DNA of 10,212 bases from an uncultured bacterium (lineage in GTDB: Bacteria; Krumholzibacteriota; Krumholzibacteriia; WVZY01; JAKEHA01). Below the pieces are notes generated by a model that was not told where the DNA came from, searched no databases, and worked only from the letters and a program-made list of their open reading frames with translations. Positions 1-9,558 of the stretch are shown here, in pieces; the first letter of the stretch is position 1; each line of letters opens with the position of its first letter. The stretch covers positions 1-10,212 of the forward strand of contig CBDVDJ010000049.1 of NCBI GenBank assembly GCA_965372695.1, written 5' to 3'. A program made the position numbers and the translations under genes.

Positions 1-1
1 G

Positions 2-175
2 TTCCTGAGCGGTACGGCGCTTCGCAAGATGCTATCAGAAGGCGGCGACATTCCCGCGGAATTCAGCCGTCCCGAAGTACTGTCTATTCTCCGTGAGTAC
101 TACTCCGGCTTGACGGAGAAAGTGGACGTTAAGCTTCACGGTCACGCGACCGGTGATGCTGAAGCCAGGAAATAG
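2..175 (+). CDS. sat: Sulfate adenylyltransferase (ATP sulfurylase), C-terminal fragment; the 5' part lies outside the window
   Basis: Frame 2 is open from the window edge to TAG at 173-175. It translates to [37 protein letters not shown]..., which resembles the conserved C-terminal SGTxxRxML..G..P.EFSRPEV block of ATP sulfurylases. It lies directly upstream of aprBA, a common arrangement. Confidence 0.7.
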
Positions 176-256
176 CGGAGTGATACGTATCAACTAACGT
201 TAAGTTCAAGTGTTGGAGGAGCCAAAGGTAAATCCTAATGTACAAAGGAGGGTTTA

Positions 257-655
257 ATGCCTAGCTTCGTAATCACAGAGAAATGCGACGGGTGCAAGGC
301 GCTCGATAAGACGGCTTGCCAATACATCTGCCCGAATGACCTCATGGTCCTGGACAAGGACACGATGAAGGCTTTCAACCAGGATGTAGATATGTGCTGG
401 GAGTGCTATAGCTGCGTCAAGATTTGTCCGGTCCAGGCGATCGAGGTCCGTGGCTATGCTGATTTTGTGCCGATGGGCGCGAGCGTGACTCCGCTGCGGG
501 CAACCGACTCGATCATGTGGACCCTCAAGTTCCGAAACGGCATGCTGAAACGGTTCAAGTTCCCGATTCGCACTACCGAAGAGGGACAGGCGCAGCCATT
601 CGATCACTACCCGACGGGCGACGATGATCTCAAGAGCCAGACGCTCATGTGCTAG
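257..655 (+). CDS. aprB: Adenylylsulfate (APS) reductase beta subunit, 2x[4Fe-4S] ferredoxin-like
   Basis: The 132-aa ORF begins MPSFVITEKCDGCKALDKTACQYICPNDLMVLDKDTMKAFNQDVDMCWECYSCVKICPVQAIEVRGY, the characteristic AprB N-terminus with its Cys motifs. It continues with the MWTLKFRNG..RFKFPIRTT segment. A GGAGG Shine-Dalgarno at 247-251 lies 5 nt upstream of the ATG at 257. Confidence 0.95.
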   Translation: MPSFVITEKCDGCKALDKTACQYICPNDLMVLDKDTMKAFNQDVDMCWECYSCVKICPVQAIEVRGYADFVPMGASVTPLRATDSIMWTLKFRNGMLKRFKFPIRTTEEGQAQPFDHYPTGDDDLKSQTLMC

Positions 656-777
656 CCGGCTGGACTGAATACCGAAGTCGGCCCGGTCAAGATCGACAAG
701 ATCCTCACGCTCTAGTCGAGCGCAGGTTGTCTGACAACGAACCGATTCTTCGTCAACGAACCAAGGAGAAAGACGAA

Positions 778-2670
778 ATGGCGGAATTTGAAACTATAAC
801 GGTCGAAACAGACGTGCTGATTTGCGGCGGCGGCATGGCCGCCTGCGGCGCAGCGGTGGAAGCGTCTTATTGGGCCAAAAAGCAAGGATTGAAGGTCACA
901 TTGGTTGACAAGGCGGCAATGGACCGCTCGGGCGCCGTCGCGATGGGACTGTCGGCCATCAACCAGTATGTGGATCTGAACAGCGGTAACAACACTCTGA
1001 ACGACTACGCCGACTACGTCCGCAACGACCTCATGGGTATTACCCGCGAGGACCTGGTGGTCAGCATCGCGCGCCACGTAGACTCGTCGGTCCACTTGTT
1101 CGAGAAGTGGGGTCTGCCCATCTGGAAGGATCAGGAGGGCAAATACGTACACGAGGGTCGCTGGCAGCTGATGATCAACGGCGAGTCGTACAAGGTGATC
1201 GTGGCAGAAGCTGCCAAAACCGCGTTGGCAGAGGCAAATGGCGAATACTTCGAACGCGTATTCATCACTCATCCGCTGATGGACGGCGACACGTGTGTGG
1301 GCGCGATCGGCTTCAGCACGAGGGAGAACAAGATATACGTGTTCAAGGCCAAAGCCACGCTGGTTTCCATGGGTGGCGCGGTGCACGTGTTCAAGCCGCG
1401 GTCGACCGGTGAGGGCTTCGGCCGCTCCTGGTACCCGCCGTTCAACTCGGGCGCGAGCGCGTTCTTCACCATCTACGGCGGCGCCGAGATGACCTGCCAG
1501 GAAGTCCGGTTCATTCCTGTCCGCTTCAAGGACGCGTACGGACCCGTGGGCGCCTGGTTCCTGCTGTTCAAGTCGATCGCGACCAACGCGCAGGGCGGCA
1601 ACTACATGCAGGATAATGCCGCGGAGCTCGAAAAGTGGCTGCCTTACGGCAAGGTGAAGCCGCGTCCGGCCAACATTCGTAACTGGCTGATGATGCTGGA
1701 CGTGATGGAAGGCAAGAGCCCGATCTACATGCAGACGGCCGAAGCCATCCAGAGGATCTCCGACGCGGTGCCCGACGAGAAAGAGCGCAAGAAGAAGCTC
1801 AAGGAACTCGAGTCGGAGGCCTGGGAGGACTTTCTGGACATGACCATTTCGCAGGCCATCTTGTGGGCCGCGTCGAACGTCGAGCCCGAGAAACAGCCCT
1901 CCGAGATCATGGCGTGTGATCCTTACTTCATCGGTTCGCATTCCGGCGCGTCCGGCGCCTGGGTTTCGGGACCGGAGGATCTCCAGACATCCAATACCAA
2001 GGATGAATACTTCTGGGGCTACACGAACATGTGCACGGTCAAGGGCATGTTCGCCGCGGGCGACGCCTCGGGAGCCTCGAGCCACAAGTTCTCTTCCGGC
2101 TCGCACGCCGAGGGACGCATCGCTGCCAAGGCCATGGTCGCCTACGCCGTGGACAACAGCTCGCCGCCGAACGTGGACCAGGCCCAGATCGACGCGTTGA
2201 CCGCGGAGATCCTCAAGCCGCTCGAGACTTTCGAGAAGCACAAGGATGCGACGACCGACCCGAACATCAACCCGGAGTACATCCGACCCAAGCAGTTCAT
2301 GTACCGGCTGCAGAAGATCATGGATGAGTACGCCGGAGGTGTTTCGAGTCAGTTCAAGACGAGCGACAAACTCATCGAGAAGGGAATGGAGTTGTTGGCC
2401 TTCCTCAAGGAAGACTCGGCCAAAATCGGTGCGGAGAACCTGCACGAGCTCATGCGGGGCTGGGAGAACGTCCACCGCATGTACCAGGCGGATTCTCACA
2501 TGCGTTCCATCCTCTTCCGCGAGGAGACACGTTGGCCGGGCTACTACTTCCGGTCCGACAAACCGAGCATGGACAACGAGAACTGGCTCGCCTTCTGTAA
2601 CTGTACCTACGACAGGAACACTGGCGAGTGGGAGATGATCAAAAGGCCCGTTAAATACCTTACGCAGTAA
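778..2670 (+). CDS. aprA: Adenylylsulfate (APS) reductase alpha subunit, FAD flavoprotein
   Basis: The 630-aa product starts at ATG 778, in frame with track ORF 649..2670. AAGGAGA at 763-769 is a good RBS. The N-terminal FAD fold DVLICGGGMAACGAAVEAS is present, along with fumarate-reductase-family flavoprotein blocks (MGLSAINQYV, FAAGDASGASSHKFSSGSHAEGRIAAKA, RWPGYYFR). It immediately follows aprB. Confidence 0.95.
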   Translation: MAEFETITVETDVLICGGGMAACGAAVEASYWAKKQGLKVTLVDKAAMDRSGAVAMGLSAINQYVDLNSGNNTLNDYADYVRNDLMGITREDLVVSIARHVDSSVHLFEKWGLPIWKDQEGKYVHEGRWQLMINGESYKVIVAEAAKTALAEANGEYFERVFITHPLMDGDTCVGAIGFSTRENKIYVFKAKATLVSMGGAVHVFKPRSTGEGFGRSWYPPFNSGASAFFTIYGGAEMTCQEVRFIPVRFKDAYGPVGAWFLLFKSIATNAQGGNYMQDNAAELEKWLPYGKVKPRPANIRNWLMMLDVMEGKSPIYMQTAEAIQRISDAVPDEKERKKKLKELESEAWEDFLDMTISQAILWAASNVEPEKQPSEIMACDPYFIGSHSGASGAWVSGPEDLQTSNTKDEYFWGYTNMCTVKGMFAAGDASGASSHKFSSGSHAEGRIAAKAMVAYAVDNSSPPNVDQAQIDALTAEILKPLETFEKHKDATTDPNINPEYIRPKQFMYRLQKIMDEYAGGVSSQFKTSDKLIEKGMELLAFLKEDSAKIGAENLHELMRGWENVHRMYQADSHMRSILFREETRWPGYYFRSDKPSMDNENWLAFCNCTYDRNTGEWEMIKRPVKYLTQ

Positions 2671-2684
2671 GGGCCTGTGGGTTT

Positions 2685-2728
2685 GCGGGATCTTTGGGCG
2701 TCGCGTCGCGGCGTCCAGAGATCCCCGC
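2685..2728 (+). terminator. Imperfect GC-rich stem-loop 15 nt after the aprA stop; possible attenuating terminator or mRNA-stabilising hairpin
   Basis: The left arm GCGGGATCTTTGG (2685-2697) pairs with the right arm CCAGAGATCCCCGC (2715-2728), with one bulge and one mismatch, around a GC-rich loop. No clear U-tract follows, so it is not a textbook intrinsic terminator. Confidence 0.3.
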
Positions 2729-2852
2729 TCCCGACGCTTTGCAGTTATTCCCGTTCGAACGTCCGGATGTGTTACAGTACTGCGCGGCTGCGGCCGGGTG
2801 GTAACCGCTGTCAGGCCGGCACCTTGGGATTATTGATCTAGTGAGGAAACCG

Positions 2853-3137
2853 ATGGCAAAACACCCTGGAACCTGCACCCATTGTGGATCCCGTCTCGAG
2901 AAGTGGCGTGTTCCCGACGACGCTACCTGGGACGAGGAGTTTTTTTACGTCTGCTTCAACGATGATTGTTCCTACTACAAATCGGGGTGGGCCTGGATGA
3001 AGGAACGTTACAACCAGCGCGCTTCGTACCGGTATGCGGTCAACCCCGGTGCCGCCGTCTCACTGATGATACCGGTCTGGTCGGACTCCGCAACGCGGGA
3101 GATGATCGAGGAGCACACCGAAGGAGGCGAGGAATGA
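2853..3137 (+). CDS. Small four-Cys zinc-ribbon-like protein, aromatic-rich, function unknown
   Basis: Track ORF 2841..3137. I prefer ATG 2853 as the start because GAGGA at 2843-2847 lies 5 nt upstream. The 94-aa product has C8-x2-C11-x22-C34-x4-C39 (CTHC...CFNDDC), followed by a W/Y-rich segment (SYYKSGWAWMKERYNQRASYRY) and an acidic tail. Its TGA stop overlaps the next gene's ATG (ATGA at 3134-3137). Confidence 0.65.
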   Translation: MAKHPGTCTHCGSRLEKWRVPDDATWDEEFFYVCFNDDCSYYKSGWAWMKERYNQRASYRYAVNPGAAVSLMIPVWSDSATREMIEEHTEGGEE

Positions 3138-4021
3138 GCGACGACAAGGATCCCGCCCAGTCCAATGACCAGCTCGATAAGCTGAAGGAGAAGATAGTCA
3201 CGGATTATCCCCGGCTGGGCCCTGACGACAACTTCCAGTTCGGGTGTCATCCCGGCGTTTCGTGTTTCAACCAGTGCTGCGGCGACGTAAACATTTTCCT
3301 GTCTCCGTACGACGTGTTGCGCATGAAGAAACGTCTCGATATGACCTCGAGCGAGTTCCTCGAGAAGTATACATTTCTCCCTGTGCAAAAGGACATGAAG
3401 ACGCCCGTGGTTGTGTTGCGCTTGAACGACGACGAGGCCAAGACCTGTCAGTTCCTTACCGAGGGGGGGTGCGGCATCTATTCGGATCGGCCGTGGCCCT
3501 GCCGCATGTATCCCCTGGGACTGGCGGCTCAGAAGGACACGCCGGACGGCTGGCGCGGCGACCGGTTTTACTTCCTCATGGAAGAGGAGGGGTGCAAGGG
3601 GTTCAGCGAGCCCAGGGAGTGGACGGTCCGACAGTGGCTCGAAGATCAGGGGCTCGAGGAGTACGACGAGTGGGGAGAGGCATTCAAGGAATTGACGCTT
3701 CACAAATTCTTCGAGGACGGTGGCACCCTCTCACCGGAGAGGATGCACATGATGTACACCGCGTGCTACGATCTGGACAAGTTTCGGGAGTTCGTGTTCG
3801 AAAGCACGCTCCTGCAGAAATTCGTGGTGGATGAGGACTTCGTGGAAGAGATGCGCTATGACGACGAAGTATTGCTTCGTTTCGCGTTTCTGTGGCTGCG
3901 GTTCAGTCTTTTCGGCGAGAAGACTGTGCAAGTGAAAGCGGACGTCGTCGAGTCGTTCAAGGGAAAACGCGACAAGAAGGGATCGTTCGATCAGAAGTCG
4001 GCGGGGAATACTCCTGAATAA
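3134..4021 (+). CDS. Extended YkgJ/UPF0153-family (CxxCxxCC-type) cysteine-cluster protein, paralog 1
   Basis: The start is taken at ATG 3134, with AAGGAGG at 3121-3127 upstream. The longer track ORF from 2966 would overlap the zinc-ribbon gene. The 295-aa product has the N-terminal cluster CHPGVSCFNQCC, then KTCQFL..GGCGIYSDRPWPCRMYPLG, the typical family core, plus CKG. It has a roughly 150-aa C-terminal extension ending in the LWLRFSLFGEKT motif. Confidence 0.8.
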   Translation: MSDDKDPAQSNDQLDKLKEKIVTDYPRLGPDDNFQFGCHPGVSCFNQCCGDVNIFLSPYDVLRMKKRLDMTSSEFLEKYTFLPVQKDMKTPVVVLRLNDDEAKTCQFLTEGGCGIYSDRPWPCRMYPLGLAAQKDTPDGWRGDRFYFLMEEEGCKGFSEPREWTVRQWLEDQGLEEYDEWGEAFKELTLHKFFEDGGTLSPERMHMMYTACYDLDKFREFVFESTLLQKFVVDEDFVEEMRYDDEVLLRFAFLWLRFSLFGEKTVQVKADVVESFKGKRDKKGSFDQKSAGNTPE

Positions 4022-4091
4022 AATAGATGATGAGTGGACACGGGTCGACGGAACAAGATCAAGACAAGGGTGATCGGCGGCGCGATCAGGT

Positions 4092-4931
4092 ATGAGGGAA
4101 ATCGAACGGCTGAAGAAGGAGATCCTCGAGCACTACCCCAAGCTCAAAAAGGACGATTCGTATTCGTTCTCCTGCCATCCGGGCGTACCTTGCTTCAACG
4201 CATGTTGCGCGGACGTCAATATTTTCCTGACTCCATACGATATTCTCAGGTTGAAGAACAATCTCGGGATGAGTTCGGACGAATTTCTTTCCAGACATAC
4301 AGTATCCCCGTTCGACAAAAATTTGAAGTACCCGGCAGTTCAGCTGGCGATGAACGACGACGACGAGAAAACGTGTCCGTTCGTCGGCGAACGCGGCTGC
4401 GGGGTCTACGAGGACCGGCCCTGGGCGTGCCGGATGTATCCGCTGGGTATGGGGTCGCAGAAGGACTCCGGCACCGGCGCCGAAAGTGACTTCTATTTTC
4501 TGCTCGAGGAGGACGTGTGCAAGGGGCACGACGAAGACCACAAGCAGACGGTGGCACAGTGGCTGGAGACTCAGGGGATCGCCGAGTACGACAAGATGGG
4601 ATACTACTTCAAGGAACTGACTCTTCACGAGTATTTCCAGACCGGCGAGAATCTCACCGGCCAGAAGATCGAGATGTTCTTCACGGCGAGTTATGACCTG
4701 GACAAGTTCAGGAGCTTTTTGTTCGACACCACGTTTTTCGACAAGTTTGAAGTCGATGAAGAGACGCAGAAGAAAATCAAGTCCGACGACGTCGAACTGC
4801 TCAAATTCGGGTATTTCTGGTTGAGATTCTCTCTTTTCGGAGAGCGAACGTTGAAGGTCAAGGGAGACGTGCTCGAAGCGCGGCAGAAAAGGCTGGAAGG
4901 CAAGAAGAAGCTGGAACAGAAACAGAACTAG
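4092..4931 (+). CDS. Extended YkgJ/UPF0153-family (CxxCxxCC-type) cysteine-cluster protein, paralog 2
   Basis: This 279-aa ORF is collinear with paralog 1 along its whole length: CHPGVPCFNACC, KTCPFV..RGCGVYEDRPWACRMYPLG, CKG, and FWLRFSLFGERT. ATG 4092 is the first start after an in-frame TGA at 4071. The Shine-Dalgarno is weak. Confidence 0.8.
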   Translation: MREIERLKKEILEHYPKLKKDDSYSFSCHPGVPCFNACCADVNIFLTPYDILRLKNNLGMSSDEFLSRHTVSPFDKNLKYPAVQLAMNDDDEKTCPFVGERGCGVYEDRPWACRMYPLGMGSQKDSGTGAESDFYFLLEEDVCKGHDEDHKQTVAQWLETQGIAEYDKMGYYFKELTLHEYFQTGENLTGQKIEMFFTASYDLDKFRSFLFDTTFFDKFEVDEETQKKIKSDDVELLKFGYFWLRFSLFGERTLKVKGDVLEARQKRLEGKKKLEQKQN

Positions 4932-4957
4932 ACCGGGGCGATCGGTTGCCGCCGGTC
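4931..4957 (+). other. Intercistronic GC-rich stem-loop between paralog 2 and the membrane cytochrome b gene
   Basis: GACCGGGGC (4931-4939) pairs with GCCGCCGGTC (4948-4957), with one bulge, around the loop GATCGGTT. It starts at the last base of the TAG stop. No U-tract follows. Confidence 0.25.
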
Positions 4958-4988
4958 CGAATCACCACAACGCGATGCGAGGTTCCCT

Positions 4989-5918
4989 ATGAGTGGACTG
5001 CAGCTGCTGATGTACGGTGCCTATGCCGTTTTTTTCATAGGTACGGCGTACAGGGCCTACCGGATGGCGACGATGCCCATGCATCTCCGTTGGGATCTGT
5101 ATCCGATACCGCACGAAAAGGGCAAAGCGGATTACGGCGGTTCATACTACGAAGAAATCGACTGGTGGACAAAACCCGCGAAGGTGTCTGTTTCCAACGA
5201 GTTGAAGGAAATGGCCAGGGAAATCATCTTTATCCAGTCGATGTACCACAATAACCGGTCCCTCTGGATGTTTTCGTTCCCATTTCATTTTGGACTCTAT
5301 TTATCAATCGTATTCGTTCTGCTGGTTTTTCTGGGGGGACTGCTCACGCTGCTCGGAGTACCGGTGTCCGCCGAATCGGCCAATATCTTCGGGAAAGCCC
5401 TGCACTACATTACGATGCCGTTCGGAATCGTGGGCGCCGTTATGGGTGCGTTCGGCGCTCTGGGATTGTTTGTCAGCCGATTCGCCAGGGGCGAACTGCG
5501 AAGGACGTCGGTCTGGACCGATTACTTCAACCTGATTCTGCTCTTCGCCATCTTCGCCAGCGGTCTCGCCGTCTGGGCGACGGAAGACATTTCGTACTCC
5601 GCCTTGAGGGTGTTCATCACGGATTTGATCTCCTTCAAAGGCACGCCCGCTGTGTCTACGGGTTTTGCCGTCCACATGGCGCTGGCGGCTGCGTTCCTGA
5701 TCTACCTTCCCTTTACGCACATGACCCACTTTGTGGGCAAGTACTTCACCTACCACAAGGTGCGATGGGAAGACCAGCCCAACATCAGGGGCAGCAAACT
5801 CGAAAAGCGGATCAACGAGGCGCTTGGTTACCATATCGACTGGTCGGCTCCCCACATTAAAGAGGGAACGTGGGCCGAAGCGGCAACTGCAACCGAGGAG
5901 AAGACCGAAAGTGAGTAA
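4989..5918 (+). CDS. NarI/DsrM/HmeC-like integral membrane di-haem cytochrome b (nitrate reductase gamma-subunit family)
   Basis: The 309-aa product has about 5 hydrophobic helices: LLMYGAYAVFFIGTAY, LWMFSFPFHFGLYLSIVFVLLVFLGG, ITMPFGIVGAVMGAFGALGLFV, YFNLILLFAIFASGLAVWA and FAVHMALAAAFLIYLPF. The N-terminal YRxxRMxxMPMHLRWDLYPIPHE block and the C-terminal LPFTHMTHFVGKYF block are typical of DsrM/HmeC/NarI-like proteins. Candidate haem-ligand His residues sit in helices 2 and 5. GAGG at 4979-4982 is a plausible RBS. Confidence 0.8.
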   Translation: MSGLQLLMYGAYAVFFIGTAYRAYRMATMPMHLRWDLYPIPHEKGKADYGGSYYEEIDWWTKPAKVSVSNELKEMAREIIFIQSMYHNNRSLWMFSFPFHFGLYLSIVFVLLVFLGGLLTLLGVPVSAESANIFGKALHYITMPFGIVGAVMGAFGALGLFVSRFARGELRRTSVWTDYFNLILLFAIFASGLAVWATEDISYSALRVFITDLISFKGTPAVSTGFAVHMALAAAFLIYLPFTHMTHFVGKYFTYHKVRWEDQPNIRGSKLEKRINEALGYHIDWSAPHIKEGTWAEAATATEEKTESE

Positions 5919-7536
5919 TGACGACAACAACAAGAAAACGACGATAAAGGAGTTCTGCCGCCGGAAAGGGCAGATCGTCAAGCTCGACGTCTCCGAGTTT
6001 CCGCCTTTGCCGCCGCCGTACGACAAACTCGACCTCGAGCCCGGAATCAAGGAGCTCTCGGACGAGTTGAAGGAGAAGTACGAAACGGATCTGGACGGCG
6101 TTTCGGCGCTCAAACTCCCCCGTCCCGAGACGGAGGAAGAAAAGCGCGAGCTGGTCCAGAGTTTCCTGACGGGACTCAAAAAGACTTTCGAGCGGGAAAA
6201 CAACTGGGGATTCCTGCAGCCGTTGTTTCTGACGATCGAGTACTGCGCGAAGTGCCAGACGTGTTCCAGGGCATGCCCTATTTATAACGAATCGGGTCAC
6301 GAGGAGATTTATCGGCCGACGTTTCGCGCCGATATACTCCGGCGCCTGTACAAAAAGTACGTACGACCGGGGGGCAAGATCCTCTCGAAGATCTCGGGGG
6401 AGGACATCGACGCCAGCTGGACGATGATTGCCCGGCTGATGGAGCTGAGTTATCGCTGCACCGTTTGCCGCCGCTGCGCGCAGACGTGCCCGATCGGCGT
6501 TGACAACGGGCTGGTGACGCGTGAACTCCGCAAGATCTTCAGCCAGGAGATGGGAATCCAGGTCGAGCAGCTGCACAAGAAGGGTTCCGTCCAGCAGCTG
6601 AAGTCGGGGTCCAGTACGGGCATGACGCCGGTCGCGTTTCTCGACAACATCGAGTTCCTCGAGGAGGAAGTCGAGGAGCGGACGGGGATGGAGTTCAAGT
6701 GGCCGATGGACAAGTCGGGCGCCGACATTCTGCTCATCCACAACGCGGGCGAGTACCTGGCGTGGCCGGAAAACCCCGAGGCGTTTGCCATCATTCTCGA
6801 GGCGGCCGGTATCGACTATACCCTGTCCAGTGACCTGCTCGGATACGACAGCGTCAATTACGGGGTGTGGTATGACGACGTGCAGTTCGCAAAGGTGGCG
6901 CTCAAACACGTCGAGATCGCCAAGAAGCTCGGTGTCAGAAAGATCGTCCTCGGCGAATGCGGTCACGCGCACAAGGCTCTCACCGTGATCGCCGACCGCG
7001 TGTTCTCCGGAGATTATAATATTCCCCGGGAGAGCTCGCTGACACTTCTGCGCGATATCATAAAGGAAAAAAGGATCAAGGTCGATCCGGCTCGCAACGA
7101 CGACATCATCACGACGCTTCATGATCCGTGCAACCTCACGCGGCTGATGGGGATCGTGGAGCCGCAGCGCGAAGTGATCAAGGCGGTATGCAATAACTTC
7201 CGGGAGATGACGCCCCACGGCGTCCACAACTACTGCTGCGGAGGCGGAAGCGGGTTTGCGATAACCGCCAACACCAACTTCCCCGACTGGCGTACGAGCG
7301 TAGCCGCCCGCGTCAAGCTGCGCCAGATCCTGGACGTGTTCCAGGATGTCATCAAACCGGATCAGAAGAAGTACGTTTGTGCACCCTGCTCGAACTGCAA
7401 GGGAGCCATTCGCGACACACTGGCGGCCTACGGCGTGTACGAGAGATGTAACATCCTGTATGGCGGCCTGGTAGAACTCATCGTCAACGCGATGGTCGAC
7501 GTTCCCGAGGGATTTCTCGAGTGGGAATGGCACTAA
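5911..7536 (+). CDS. DsrK/HmeD/HdrD-like iron-sulfur protein (two ferredoxin-type [4Fe-4S] motifs plus a CCG cysteine-rich domain)
   Basis: Two CxxCxxCxxxCP motifs are present (CAKCQTCSRACP and CTVCRRCAQTCP). The C-terminal CCG domain reads HDPCNLTR...NYCCGGGSG...CAPCSNC. GECGHAHK is a degenerate N-terminal CCG-like segment, as in DsrK-type proteins. The start is assigned to GTG 5911, with GAGGAG at 5895-5900 upstream, giving 541 aa and an 8-nt overlap (GTGAGTAA) with the upstream gene. The track start at 5731 would overlap that gene by 188 nt. The exact start is uncertain. Confidence 0.85.
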   Translation: MSNDDNNKKTTIKEFCRRKGQIVKLDVSEFPPLPPPYDKLDLEPGIKELSDELKEKYETDLDGVSALKLPRPETEEEKRELVQSFLTGLKKTFERENNWGFLQPLFLTIEYCAKCQTCSRACPIYNESGHEEIYRPTFRADILRRLYKKYVRPGGKILSKISGEDIDASWTMIARLMELSYRCTVCRRCAQTCPIGVDNGLVTRELRKIFSQEMGIQVEQLHKKGSVQQLKSGSSTGMTPVAFLDNIEFLEEEVEERTGMEFKWPMDKSGADILLIHNAGEYLAWPENPEAFAIILEAAGIDYTLSSDLLGYDSVNYGVWYDDVQFAKVALKHVEIAKKLGVRKIVLGECGHAHKALTVIADRVFSGDYNIPRESSLTLLRDIIKEKRIKVDPARNDDIITTLHDPCNLTRLMGIVEPQREVIKAVCNNFREMTPHGVHNYCCGGGSGFAITANTNFPDWRTSVAARVKLRQILDVFQDVIKPDQKKYVCAPCSNCKGAIRDTLAAYGVYERCNILYGGLVELIVNAMVDVPEGFLEWEWH

Positions 7537-7555
7537 CCGCGCGGAGGGACCTATT

Positions 7556-7930
7556 GTGGCCAAGAAAATCCTGATTGTAGACGACGAAGCCGACGTCAGA
7601 ACTTATCTGGAAGTACTGTTCCAGGAAAACGGGTACGAAACCGCGGTAGCCGCCGACGGCGACGAGGCGATGCCGAAAGTTCATGAGTTCAAACCGGACC
7701 TGATCTCTCTCGACATCATCATGCCGCGCGAGAGCGGCCAGAAATTTTACCGCACGCTGGTAAAAGACGCGGAGTTCGGCAAAACACCCGTCATTATCTG
7801 CAGTGGTGTAACGCGCTACAAAGAGCTGTTCTCGCGCGACCACAAGACGATGCCCAAACCGTTTGCCTTCATCGAGAAACCGATCGACAAAGGCGAACTC
7901 CTGGGCAAAATCAAGGAAGCCATCGGGTAG
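7556..7930 (+). CDS. Single-domain CheY-like response regulator receiver (no output domain)
   Basis: This 124-aa product has a GTG start with GGAGGG at 7543-7548 upstream. All canonical receiver residues are present: DD (9-10) in KILIVDDE, the phospho-acceptor D53 in LISLDIIMP, S83 in IICSG, and K108 in FIEKP. It starts 19 nt after the DsrK-like stop. Confidence 0.9.
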   Translation: MAKKILIVDDEADVRTYLEVLFQENGYETAVAADGDEAMPKVHEFKPDLISLDIIMPRESGQKFYRTLVKDAEFGKTPVIICSGVTRYKELFSRDHKTMPKPFAFIEKPIDKGELLGKIKEAIG

Positions 7931-7939
7931 CGCCGTGAT

Positions 7940-7961
7940 GGCCCGGGGCGCCACCCCGGCC
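7940..7961. terminator. GC-rich hairpin between convergent genes (possible bidirectional terminator)
   Basis: GGCC(C)GGGG (7940-7948) pairs with CCCCGGCC (7954-7961) around the loop CGCCA, giving an 8-bp G/C stem with one bulge. It sits in the 34-nt gap between the receiver gene stop (7930) and the SPFH gene stop (7965). There are no flanking U/A tracts. Confidence 0.4.
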
Positions 7962-7964
7962 TCG

Positions 7965-9113
7965 TCACGCTGCTTCCGGACCTTCGGCGGCGGCGGTTCC
8001 GGCGGCGGAGCCGGCGTCTGTCCCGGTATCCCCGGGCAGGTCGGCCGTCTTTGCGAGCGCCGTCAGGCCGCCCAGAACACCCAACCCCATCGATTCGACC
8101 GCTGATGACGGTACGATGATCATCGACCCCTTCTGCCGCAACCCCTCGTAGACCATGTTCATCGCGCGCAGGTGCAAAGCGACCGGATTGTCCTGGTAGT
8201 GGTAGGCGGCGGCGGCGAATTTTTCGGCGATCTCGGTCTCGGCGGTGCCGAGGATGATCCGGCTCTGGCGTTCGCGTTCCGCCTGCGCCTGTCGTGACAT
8301 CGCGTCTTCGAGGCCTTTGGGTATCACGATGTCGCGGATCTCGACGTCCTGGGTGGTGACACCCCACGCGTTGGTTTTTTTGTCGAGGAGCTTCTGGATC
8401 TCGGAGCCGAGACGGTCCCGTTCCGACAGCAGGGTGGCGAGGTCGTTTTTTCCGATCGCGTTACGCAGCGCCGTCTGCGCCGACAGGATGACGGCGTCCT
8501 CGAAATGCTCGACTTCGAGTACGGACTTCTGCGCGTCCCACACCATCCAGAACGCGATCGCGTCGACGCTGACCGGCACCGTGTCCGCCGTCAGCGTTGT
8601 CTCGGCGCTGAAGTCGGTGACGCGGATTCGCTGGTCTACGAACTGGGCGACTTTGTCGATGACGGGAATGACGGCGAAGAGCCCCGACGACCGTATCGCC
8701 TTGAATTTGCCAAATCGCAGCACGACGGCGCGTTCCCATTGATAAGCGATCTGCACAGACGTCGACACCAGTACTGCGACGGTGATGGTGACGAGTAACA
8801 CGTCGTCCAGCGGCCGCATGACGAGGTACGCGATGAAACAGTCCGCCGTGGCGAGCACGACGACGGCTTCCCATATCTGTGTGAGCCGTATCAAGCCCGC
8901 CAGGATAAGCGCCGATCCGAGAAACAACGCAACGGCGTCCGCGCTGAAGCCATGGAGGCGGAGGTGGACGATCAGGCCGGCGACGAACAGTGCCACCAGC
9001 AGCAGAACGTTCAGGGGTGCAAACCTGAAATCGGCCCTCATGGTGGCGGCAAAGCGTTCCAGTGAAATACCGGGTACCGATCGGCCTTCAGCCGTTTTTA
9101 CGGATCCAGTCAT
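7965..9113 (-). CDS. SPFH/band-7 (stomatin/prohibitin-like) protein with a polytopic N-terminal membrane region
   Basis: This 382-aa product has about four N-terminal hydrophobic helices. A canonical SPFH core follows: ERAVVLRFGKFKAIRSSGLFAVIPVIDKV..., DAIAFWMVWDAQKSV, ALRNAIGKNDLATLLSERD, VEIRDIVIPKGLEDAMSRQAQAERERQSRIILG, and a C-terminal Ala/Gly-rich tail. AAGGAG on the minus strand (9127-9122) lies 8 nt upstream of the ATG. Confidence 0.9.
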   Translation of the reverse strand: MTGSVKTAEGRSVPGISLERFAATMRADFRFAPLNVLLLVALFVAGLIVHLRLHGFSADAVALFLGSALILAGLIRLTQIWEAVVVLATADCFIAYLVMRPLDDVLLVTITVAVLVSTSVQIAYQWERAVVLRFGKFKAIRSSGLFAVIPVIDKVAQFVDQRIRVTDFSAETTLTADTVPVSVDAIAFWMVWDAQKSVLEVEHFEDAVILSAQTALRNAIGKNDLATLLSERDRLGSEIQKLLDKKTNAWGVTTQDVEIRDIVIPKGLEDAMSRQAQAERERQSRIILGTAETEIAEKFAAAAYHYQDNPVALHLRAMNMVYEGLRQKGSMIIVPSSAVESMGLGVLGGLTALAKTADLPGDTGTDAGSAAGTAAAEGPEAA

Positions 9114-9487
9114 GACGACGACTCCTTTCGTTGCCGCAGTCCTTCCAGCACATCGTCGAGCATGAGCCCGTAGCTGGAAGCGCGAGCCATTAGTTCGGTC
9201 AAAATCTGATCGAGCATTCTCTGTTTTTCCAGCCGGTCGATCTCCGGCTTGCGGCTGCCGATAAAAGTCCCCGAGCCCTGTTGTGTGTCGAGCGTTCCTT
9301 CGATTTCGAGTTCGCGGTACGCGCGCACCACTGTGTTCGGGTTGATCGCGAGTTCGACGGCGAGCTGGCGAACCGTCGGCAGGCGGTCTCCGGGGCCAAG
9401 CTCGCCGCTGGCAATGCCGAACTTGATCTGTTCGATAATCTGCCGGTAGAACGGCACGCCGCTCTTGTTATCCAGAATAAATCCCAT
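9110..9487 (-). CDS. GntR-family transcriptional regulator, YtrA-like subfamily (short effector/dimerisation domain)
   Basis: This 125-aa product has a winged-HTH block PFYRQIIEQIKFGIASGELGPGDRLPTVRQLAVELAINPNTVVRAYRELEIEGTLDTQQGSGTFI, followed by only about 50 aa, as in the YtrA subfamily. GGAG (9499-9496) lies 8 nt upstream of the ATG. Its stop overlaps the SPFH gene start (ATGA at 9113-9110). Confidence 0.9.
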   Translation of the reverse strand: MGFILDNKSGVPFYRQIIEQIKFGIASGELGPGDRLPTVRQLAVELAINPNTVVRAYRELEIEGTLDTQQGSGTFIGSRKPEIDRLEKQRMLDQILTELMARASSYGLMLDDVLEGLRQRKESSS

Positions 9488-9506
9488 AGGCTCATCTCCG
9501 TTTATC

Positions 9507-9540
9507 GTACTATAAGACTAGTGTACTAGCATTATAGTAC
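9507..9540. promoter_or_regulatory. 34-nt near-perfect palindrome; candidate operator for the adjacent GntR/YtrA-like repressor
   Basis: The sequence is GTACTATAAGACTAGTGTACTAGCATTATAGTAC. The outer 9-nt arms GTACTATAA and TTATAGTAC are perfectly complementary, and 28 of 34 positions are symmetric. GTACTA/TAGTAC hexamers occur at 9507, 9523 and 9535. The element overlaps the -10 hexamer and the predicted transcription start. Confidence 0.6.
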
Positions 9541-9558
9541 AATATGAGAGTGTGTCAA
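9531..9558 (-). promoter_or_regulatory. Consensus sigma70-type promoter for the gntR-SPFH operon
   Basis: On the minus strand, TTGACA (9558-9553) is followed by a 16-nt spacer and TATAAT (9536-9531). Both hexamers match consensus exactly. The predicted start is about 35-40 nt upstream of the gntR ATG at 9487. Confidence 0.65.

Follow-up and report, generated by a model that had tools for sequence, protein, structure and literature searches.

The window analysed here, that is, the whole stretch of DNA of 10,212 nt, carries the genes for both subunits of adenosine 5'-phosphosulfate (APS) reductase, aprB and aprA, followed by genes for cysteine-rich proteins and a DsrMK-like pair; the relation of these downstream genes to APS reductase is the subject of this work. 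Genes were identified by open reading frame (ORF) listing and profile searches (Pfam, NCBIfam/TIGR). The 3' end of sat (ATP sulfurylase; 2-175, + strand), truncated by the window edge and recognised in the frame-2 translation, is collinear with the full-length sat of the close relative L005, and is followed by aprB (APS reductase beta subunit; 257-655, +; TIGR02060, 206.6 bits, cutoff 135.65; PF12139) and aprA (alpha subunit of 630 amino acids (aa); 778-2670, +, with its ATG at 778; TIGR02061, 866.6 bits, cutoff 641.75). Five + strand genes come next, co-directional with aprBA as the original prediction for this DNA had stated: ZnR, a small Zn-finger protein of 94 aa (2853-3137, +; PF04606, Ogr/Delta, 29.9 bits, cutoff 26.3); YkgJ-1 and YkgJ-2, two extended YkgJ Cys-cluster proteins of 295 aa (3134-4021, +; PF03692, 36.5 bits, cutoff 23) and 279 aa (4092-4931, +; PF03692, 38.4 bits, cutoff 23); DsrM2, a NarI-family membrane cytochrome b of 309 aa (4989-5918, +; PF02665, 51.2 bits, cutoff 22.9); and DsrK2, an HdrD/DsrK-like iron-sulfur (Fe-S)/CCG protein of 541 aa (5911-7536, +; PF13183 (Fer4_8), 43.4 bits; PF02754 (CCG), 30.5 bits). 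The families expected for this block (PF03692, PF02665, PF02754 and 4Fe-4S) were all matched, by the two YkgJ proteins, the NarI-like protein and the CCG/Fer4_8 protein. A sixth co-directional gene, encoding a single-domain response regulator of the CheY/DivK type (7556-7930, +; PF00072, 72.8 bits; NCBIfam "DVU0259 family", 119 bits, cutoff 160), goes with the DsrMK-like pair.

Both start/stop overlaps described in the original prediction were found in the sequence: ATGA (3134-3137) between ZnR and YkgJ-1, and GTGAGTAA (5911-5918) between DsrM2 and DsrK2. The intergenic gaps were 70 nt between YkgJ-1 and YkgJ-2, 57 nt between YkgJ-2 and DsrM2, and 19 nt between DsrK2 and the response regulator. 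ZnR starts at ATG 2853, with GAGGA 7 nt upstream, and has an alternative in-frame GTG at 2841. Its four cysteines are arranged as CX2CX22CX4C, a spacing held in 59 of 60 orthologues, and 29 of 30 orthologues matched PF04606. The C-terminal part carries a conserved SYR..NP..GPLPVWS segment, and the last 45 residues were without counterpart in the PF04606 model. YkgJ-1 and YkgJ-2 were 53% identical. The invariant cysteines of YkgJ are eight (C28/C34/C38/C39 and four more), which would suffice for two metal or Fe-S sites. A PDB sequence search by profile gave no significant match for YkgJ and a best E value of 0.63 for ZnR; the single-sequence structure model of ZnR (predicted local distance difference test, pLDDT, 53) was too poor for a structure search.

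The occurrence of ZnR and YkgJ was surveyed in one genome per species, with the YkgJ alignment as query. At least 551 relatives were obtained, and the best 80 were mapped with the window proteins. An exact look-up of one window protein matched no record, and all evidence from beyond the window comes from relatives (their loci numbered with L), not from the window's own genome. Locus taxonomy follows the labels of the metagenome-assembled genomes (MAGs), and survey ORFs were called by a simple longest-ORF heuristic, which in some loci was misled by antisense ORFs. By these labels, the best 80 YkgJ relatives came from Zixibacteria, Ignavibacteria, Kryptoniota, Bacteroidetes, Elusimicrobiota, Gemmatimonadota, Planctomycetes, Pseudomonadota and one Desulfobacteraceae MAG. 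In 72 of 76 loci, ZnR was the gene just before YkgJ. Where the flank was long enough (68 loci), a co-directional aprA ended no more than 700 nt before the pair in 56, and aprA lay within 10 kb in 65, being absent from that range in three. The proposal that the soluble Cys-rich proteins are tied to APS reductase is thereby borne out, ZnR and YkgJ being the next genes after aprA in 56 of the 68 species genomes that were informative. An anticorrelation of the block with the genes of the QmoABC complex was contradicted: qmoC and/or QmoA/QmoB pairs lay within 10 kb in 61 of 79 YkgJ loci, the ZnR-YkgJ pair was situated between aprA and qmoA in several clades, and most genomes surveyed had ZnR-YkgJ with Qmo and without DsrM2K2. 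ZnR and YkgJ co-occur with Qmo rather than replacing it.

Three gene orders recurred: qmoC divergent from sat-aprBA-ZnR-YkgJ ("Z-type"); qmoAB-sat-aprBA-(hppA)-ZnR-YkgJ-qmoC; and aprBA-ZnR-YkgJ-qmoA-qmoB-qmoC-sat ("P-type"), "Z-type" and "P-type" being working labels of this analysis. At 44-48% YkgJ identity the order was still aprA-(ZnR)-YkgJ-qmoABC. The YkgJ stop and the qmoA start overlapped by 4 nt in L168 (2921-2924) and in L172 (8831-8834), which suggests that YkgJ may be translationally coupled with QmoA. One clade (L172-175) has YkgJ without ZnR. Relatives with around 42% identity occurred in other contexts, near cstA or a gene of the dsrC/tusE family, together with a different small Cys-rich protein (L165/L166/L176; L167, 7295-8963). 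The 87-aa and 84-aa proteins beside distant YkgJ relatives (L165, L176) were considered as ZnR homologues and rejected, their Cys pattern being different. The extended YkgJ family comprised 268 clusters at E ≤ 1e-30 and is wider than the apr-linked subfamily. No paper was found that links YkgJ/PF03692/UPF0153 to apr or sulfate reduction, or that gives the pair a function.

Other genes accompany the pair at some loci. A membrane pyrophosphatase gene, hppA (1087 bits), lay between aprA and ZnR in Ignavibacteria (L060, L061, L073, L075, L077, L084), and in the survey count five loci, besides the 56 with aprA at most 700 nt away, have a pyrophosphatase gene between aprA and the pair; hppA is a sensible partner of sulfate activation because pyrophosphate is removed. 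Genes of the type IX secretion system (T9SS) stood between aprA and ZnR in L029. A 227-aa "DVU0298 family" protein (NF045662, 139 bits), absent from the window, was encoded convergently just downstream of YkgJ in 20 loci (L010, L015, L020, L024, L025, L027 and L032 among them), in Zixibacteria/Ignavibacteria-type clusters, and appears to be another uncharacterised protein associated with these apr clusters. A literature search for DVU0259 and DVU0298 gave nothing useful.

The spacer between aprA and ZnR measures 182 nt and holds a strong conserved hairpin (2685-2728, +), GC-rich and with a stem of 18-20 bp, identified by folding and conservation. The fold of 2665-2845 had an energy of -80.9 kcal/mol (z = -2.65). 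The hairpin was kept in L001/L004/L005 and in the P-type loci L063/L067/L070/L072; 2 pairs are compensatory, and in the P-type loci a T-run comes after it. An analogous hairpin lies 3' of aprA in L172. A scan for consensus terminators and promoters found no canonical terminator within the block. The hairpin is probably a partial or attenuating terminator, or a transcript-stabilising 3' stem, that sets the expression of aprBA apart from that of the downstream genes. With this hairpin in the spacer, the co-transcription of ZnR with aprBA is therefore not assured.

The DsrM2-DsrK2 pair was studied in a metagenome scan, which gave at least 490 relatives; the best 80 (58-80% identity) were examined. 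DsrK2 has two CX2CX2CX3CP motifs (C112-C122, C183-C193) and a full CCG motif (C407...C442C443G...C490xxC493), invariant in 6 orthologues. Against the NCBIfam model of DsrK (NF045796) it scored 335.6 bits, under the cutoff of 400 (HmcF 188, TmcB 183), as compared with 700.5 for the canonical DsrK of L065 and 333.9 for the dsrC-adjacent orthologue in L105. DsrM2, in which six His are invariant across orthologues, scored 40.4 bits against NCBIfam DsrM (NF038037; cutoff 300), and the canonical DsrM of L065 466.8. DsrK2 thus reads as a distinct paralogous subfamily of DsrK. The pair stays together among the best 80 relatives, and in 47 of the 70 called metagenome loci the gene just ahead of DsrK2 is DsrM2. 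Of some 70 metagenome loci, 8 had dsrC directly upstream and 6 had dsrAB; many were free-standing. The pair frequently had a gene for a response regulator or a MerR-like protein at its side, and the same response regulator followed DsrK2 in L004/L005, L019, L026, L030, several metagenome loci and a 50,253-bp contig from the Joint Genome Institute (JGI) that is described below. Among the 80 YkgJ genome loci the cassette came after YkgJ in a handful (L005, L008, L019, L026, L030), mostly behind a MerR-like gene.

A MerR/HspR-like gene was directly upstream of DsrM2 in L018, L019, L026, L030, L085, L086, L103 and L106, and is missing in the window lineage.

These distributions are consistent with a self-contained, DsrMK-only paralogue cassette (DsrM2, DsrK2 and the regulator) that would be a module unrelated to ZnR and YkgJ. 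The orthologues near dsrC/dsrAB, together with the match to the published dsrM-2/dsrK-2 and DsrMK copies, indicate that DsrC, and not AprB, would therefore be the most likely substrate.

The position of the qmo genes in the window's lineage was established from its relatives. The closest, L005 (CBDUWU010000015.1), is a contig of a GTDB species-representative MAG, collinear with 1-8988 of the window at 96.1% nt identity; its full-length sat scored 496 bits against NF003166, and a qmoC gene (406 bits, NF038018, cutoff 300) is encoded on the strand opposite to sat, some 0.6 kb upstream of it. The same divergent qmoC was found in L004 (415 bits), in L003, a complete Zixibacteria chromosome (CP070824.1; 405 bits), and in most related loci, and qmoC was kept beside sat in every lineage with DsrM2K2 after the apr accessory genes where the flank could be read. 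The 50,253-bp JGI contig has the synteny of the window with a single YkgJ (79% identical to YkgJ-2): qmoC in reverse, then sat-aprB-aprA-ZnR-YkgJ-NarI-DsrK-response regulator forward, then Band7 and GntR in reverse. What is apparently the same contig carries qmoA-qmoB-dsrA-dsrB-(dsrD)-dsrN-dsrL-dsrC-dsrT-dsrM-dsrK, with qmoA of 428 aa and qmoB of 752 aa with an FlpD domain. An anticorrelation between DsrM2K2 beside apr and QmoAB had been entertained, and was dropped after both appeared on this contig. In several further Zixibacteria, homology searches located QmoB and the apr cluster on one chromosome or contig; this group is credited with the full pathway set (Diao 2023, PMC10591310). The HdrA-like pairs of 420 aa plus 750 aa (VhuD-like end) are QmoA/B.

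The original prediction had seen the block as standing in for qmoABC. QmoA/B, QmoC and AprM genes are indeed missing inside the window, as it had noted, a consequence of where the window was cut: read against its relatives, the window appears to be cut, at its left edge, just short of qmoC, and Qmo seems "absent" because the sequence was cut off before this gene. AprM-like genes were not seen in the window, for which no AprM model was searched, and the sole membrane protein of the block is the NarI-like DsrM2. With qmoC upstream of sat in a contig 96.1% identical, and qmoA-qmoB plus a dsr cluster apparently on one 50,253-bp contig in a relative of the same synteny, a Qmo-free route is not supported.

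The genes of the locus differ in ancestry. AprA of the window was 82-89% identical to P-type clusters and 72-76% to Z-type, ZnR 57-74% and 41-51%, and YkgJ-1 68-77% (Planctomycetes/Gemmatimonadota/UBA2156-type clusters) and 50-55% (Zixibacteria-type), respectively. YkgJ-2, DsrM2, DsrK2 and the response regulator were Z-type by identity, as were sat and qmoC of L004/L005. The sister lineage L006 has a Z-type aprA-ZnR ahead of a YkgJ 78% identical to YkgJ-2. An origin of YkgJ-1 and YkgJ-2 as tandem duplicates was rejected by this identity pattern, which assigns them to different lineages. The locus is best described as a mosaic with two YkgJ copies of different ancestry. In the simplest reading, a foreign P-type aprA-ZnR-YkgJ1 segment would have replaced the resident aprA-ZnR of a Z-type cluster, the resident YkgJ2 having stayed in place.

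The explanation we favour, and consider reasonably probable, is that two functionally separate modules lie beside aprBA in a Qmo-bearing organism. It builds on what was established directly: which families the genes belong to, how often they are neighbours, that conspecific and closely related loci have Qmo, that the locus is of mixed ancestry and that DsrM2K2 has a distribution of its own. The biochemical roles are all deductions. Module 1 (2853-4931) would be a conserved accessory pair of aprBA/qmo, ZnR plus YkgJ, here with two YkgJ; module 2 (4989-7930) would be the self-contained DsrMK-only cassette of DsrM2, DsrK2 and the response regulator. Electrons would reach AprBA through a split QmoABC, with qmoC upstream of sat and qmoAB beside dsrAB. 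YkgJ, probably in complex with the translationally coupled ZnR, would act as a metal or Fe-S accessory at the Apr-Qmo interface, in docking or electron relay. DsrM2K2 would oxidise menaquinol, and its CCG site would act on the DsrC trisulfide/disulfide, as that of DsrMK does, with no donation to AprB and with a CheY-like regulator attached. A further step, to be taken as tentative at best, is that YkgJ (usually with ZnR) may be an unrecognised component of the Apr-Qmo electron-transfer machinery, possibly a docking or electron-entry subunit and the postulated "third partner", in many non-model lineages with sulfate/sulfite metabolism (Zixibacteria, Ignavibacteria, Kryptoniota, Elusimicrobiota, Gemmatimonadota, Planctomycetes and some Desulfobacterota). 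Several observations weigh against the two-module explanation. To our knowledge, model sulfate reducers (Desulfovibrio, with aprBA-qmoABC) function without the ZnR/YkgJ pair. YkgJ was without a structural neighbour, and the family of ZnR is that of the phage transcription activators (Ogr/Delta), which fits a regulatory role equally. In the window lineage, YkgJ-2 and DsrM2 are separated by 57 nt with no MerR-like gene between them, and co-expression of the cassette with the apr accessory genes is possible. That both gene sets stand on one 50,253-bp contig is apparent only, as it was inferred from the matching sample, internal label and size and not from DNA; and the QmoB matches listed, which extend to about 71% identity and say nothing on absence, did not contain the complete genomes L003 (CP070824.1) and L026 (OY760907.1), in both of which DsrM2K2 comes right behind YkgJ, or the 299,850-bp contig of L004.

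ZnR and YkgJ might instead be regulatory (an Ogr/Delta-like activator with a redox- or metal-sensing Cys protein, tuning apr/qmo), or serve as an assembly chaperone for the Fe-S clusters or flavin adenine dinucleotide (FAD) of AprBA/Qmo, with DsrM2K2 acting as above. We hold this to be possible, if rather doubtful. It would suit the PF04606 (Ogr/Delta) matches of 29 of 30 ZnR orthologues with the exact CX2CX22CX4C, the situation of the pair behind the conserved post-aprA hairpin, with expression probably below that of aprBA, the clusters with YkgJ and no ZnR (L172-175), and the distant YkgJ relatives in non-apr contexts (CstA, dsrC). It is at odds with the intra-operon place between aprA and qmoA, including the start/stop overlap to qmoA, which is typical of subunits, with the lack of a detected DNA-binding domain in YkgJ, and with the C-terminal half of ZnR, unrelated to Ogr. 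The original prediction had proposed that DsrM2K2 could pass quinol electrons through ZnR and the two YkgJ adaptors to AprB; such a route, replacing Qmo or parallel to it in this lineage, we regard as improbable. It is favoured by the shared direction and close spacing of the genes in three places (the window lineage, L003 and the 50,253-bp contig), by the cassettes that have come to stand behind the apr accessory genes in a number of genomes of Zixibacteria, Ignavibacteria and Elusimicrobiota (L003, L019, L026, L030, L085) and by the fact that qmoAB is not demonstrated for L003, L026 or the window genome (the QmoB lists end at about 71% identity); furthermore, nobody has yet reconstituted the passage of electrons from Qmo to Apr (Ramos 2012, PMC3333476). 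However, qmoC is conserved beside sat in all these lineages with a readable flank, qmoAB is apparently on the same contig in the closest long-contig relative, and most genomes have ZnR-YkgJ with Qmo and without DsrM2K2. The DsrM2K2 orthologues are overwhelmingly apr-independent and linked to dsrC/dsrAB: none of the 17 loci whose upstream flank measured at least 5 kb contained apr, and apr or YkgJ was nearby in only one of the 80 overall (L085). The MerR-like gene between YkgJ and DsrM2 in L019, L026, L030 and L085 implies a separate transcription unit. Recurrence of the block beside aprBA held for the ZnR-YkgJ part and failed for the DsrMK-like part, which is mostly apr-independent; taken with Qmo in the nearest relatives, the Zn-finger/YkgJ half of the original prediction stands and its DsrMK half and supposed absence of Qmo do not. 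Least probable of all, in our judgement, is that the juxtaposition is meaningless for all five genes, the product of sulfur-metabolism islands shuffled by lateral transfer. The demonstrably mosaic locus, the variable position of DsrM2K2 and the insertions between aprA and ZnR (hppA in Ignavibacteria, T9SS genes in L029) are in line with such shuffling, but the aprA-ZnR-YkgJ adjacency persists in several phyla, even where YkgJ identity falls to 44%, far more than hitch-hiking would preserve, and the genes are translationally coupled.

Parts of this arrangement have been seen before. Clusters of the form sat-aprBA-hyp-hyp-qmoC and dsrAB-D-N-hyp-L-C-dsrM-2-dsrK-2 were described in "Ca. Thermonerobacter thiotrophicus" and Ignavibacteria GWB2, the two genes after aprA being called conserved hypothetical with no family or role assigned (Thiel 2019, PMC6338057). 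As in those clusters, two genes come directly after aprA (in the Ignavibacteria/Kryptoniota loci of our survey these are ZnR and YkgJ, followed by qmoC), qmoAB apparently lies elsewhere in the genome, a second dsrMK exists besides dsrTMKJOP, and the sulfur gene set is of the same "environmental supercluster" type. Unlike them, the qmoC of the window lineage, though part of the cluster, stands upstream of sat and divergent from it, not after the two genes, the window has two YkgJ of different ancestry, dsrM-2/dsrK-2 come after YkgJ and not after dsrC, and a response regulator is attached.

Protein records of a Wadden Sea fosmid provide another parallel. CAJ31182 ("conserved hypothetical protein, UPF0153") is a YkgJ orthologue, 60% identical to YkgJ-2, and CAJ31161, the accession directly before CAJ31162/CAJ31163, is QmoB. 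A Wadden Sea fosmid of an uncultured sulfate reducer was reportedly described by Mussmann et al. in 2005. The YkgJ orthologue was annotated merely as hypothetical, and the likeness is known from the protein records, not from gene order. CAJ31162/CAJ31163 are DsrA/DsrB of fosmid 39f7 (Thiel 2019, PMC6338057).

For DsrM2K2, the closest counterparts are the DsrMK-only complexes of Gram-positive and archaeal sulfite/sulfate reducers and the second copies in Deltaproteobacteria; organisms with both DsrMK and DsrMKJOP have been reported (Neukirchen 2023, PMC10504309). The cassette shares with these complexes a NarI-like cytochrome b with an HdrD-like CCG protein bearing two [4Fe-4S] motifs, the lack of JOP genes, the coexistence with a DsrMKJOP-type set and orthologues beside dsrC and dsrAB; it differs in that DsrM2 and DsrK2 fall under the equivalog cutoffs, in its place after the apr accessory genes and in the DivK-like response regulator that follows. 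The locus also resembles the QmoAB-HdrBC/QmoAB-HdrD and AprM systems of Gram-positive reducers and sulfur oxidisers, variants that wire AprBA to membrane or cytoplasmic donors, although, unlike in the QmoAB-HdrBC/QmoAB-HdrD systems, no HdrB/C-like gene follows qmoAB here and QmoC is present.

In the Desulfovibrio locus DVU0846-0850, aprBA and qmoABC presumably adjoin each other, and genes for a Zn finger or YkgJ are not known to intervene; here, in contrast, qmoC and qmoAB appear to stand apart, and an extra pair comes after aprA. The window's lineage resembles the QmoABC-AprBA system of Desulfovibrio (Ramos 2012, PMC3333476) in that AprBA is without a membrane anchor and that QmoC (HdrC/HdrE-like) and QmoA/B (HdrA-like) are present in the lineage or in close relatives. 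QmoABC binds AprBA, and as the transfer of electrons between them could not be reconstituted, a third partner was proposed (Ramos 2012, PMC3333476). In view of this gap and of the proposed third partner, the ZnR/YkgJ pair is therefore a reasonable candidate for an Apr/Qmo accessory. The route by which APS reductase receives its electrons has long been missing from the bioenergetics of sulfate respiration, and an uncharacterised eight-Cys protein, usually with a small Zn-finger partner, is wedged between aprA and the qmo genes in dozens of sampled species genomes of several phyla.

The components of the locus are individually known, as the hypotheticals of Thiel 2019, the UPF0153 protein CAJ31182 and dsrM-2/K-2. 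New is the arrangement, a double YkgJ of mixed ancestry with the DsrM2K2-response regulator cassette directly behind it; to which families the proteins belong, and how widespread and tight the aprA-(ZnR)-YkgJ-qmo linkage is, appears to be undescribed so far. For annotators, two cautions follow from the locus: Qmo may look "absent" when it is split, with qmoC by sat and qmoAB by dsrAB, and DsrMK-like pairs beside apr are probably spare DsrMK modules and not Apr donors.

Further features of the window were recorded. Rfam gave no match anywhere in the window, and a repeat scan found only weak matches inside the block, some short ones linking the two YkgJ genes. Long antisense ORFs lie on the - strand at 712-2499, 5857-7563 and 5304-6203 (595, 568 and 299 aa), opposite aprA, DsrK2 and DsrM2, respectively; they were rejected as genes, stop-poor antisense frames being usual for genes rich in G+C at third codon positions (GC3 0.70-0.82). 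On the - strand at 9503-9558, upstream of a GntR-family gene (9110-9487), there is a perfect sigma-70 consensus promoter, TTGACA-16 nt-TATAAT (12/12), overlapped by a palindrome of 20+20 nt (9503-9522/9525-9544). This element probably serves as the autoregulatory operator for the gntR-band7 (SPFH) operon, which runs toward the sulfur genes.

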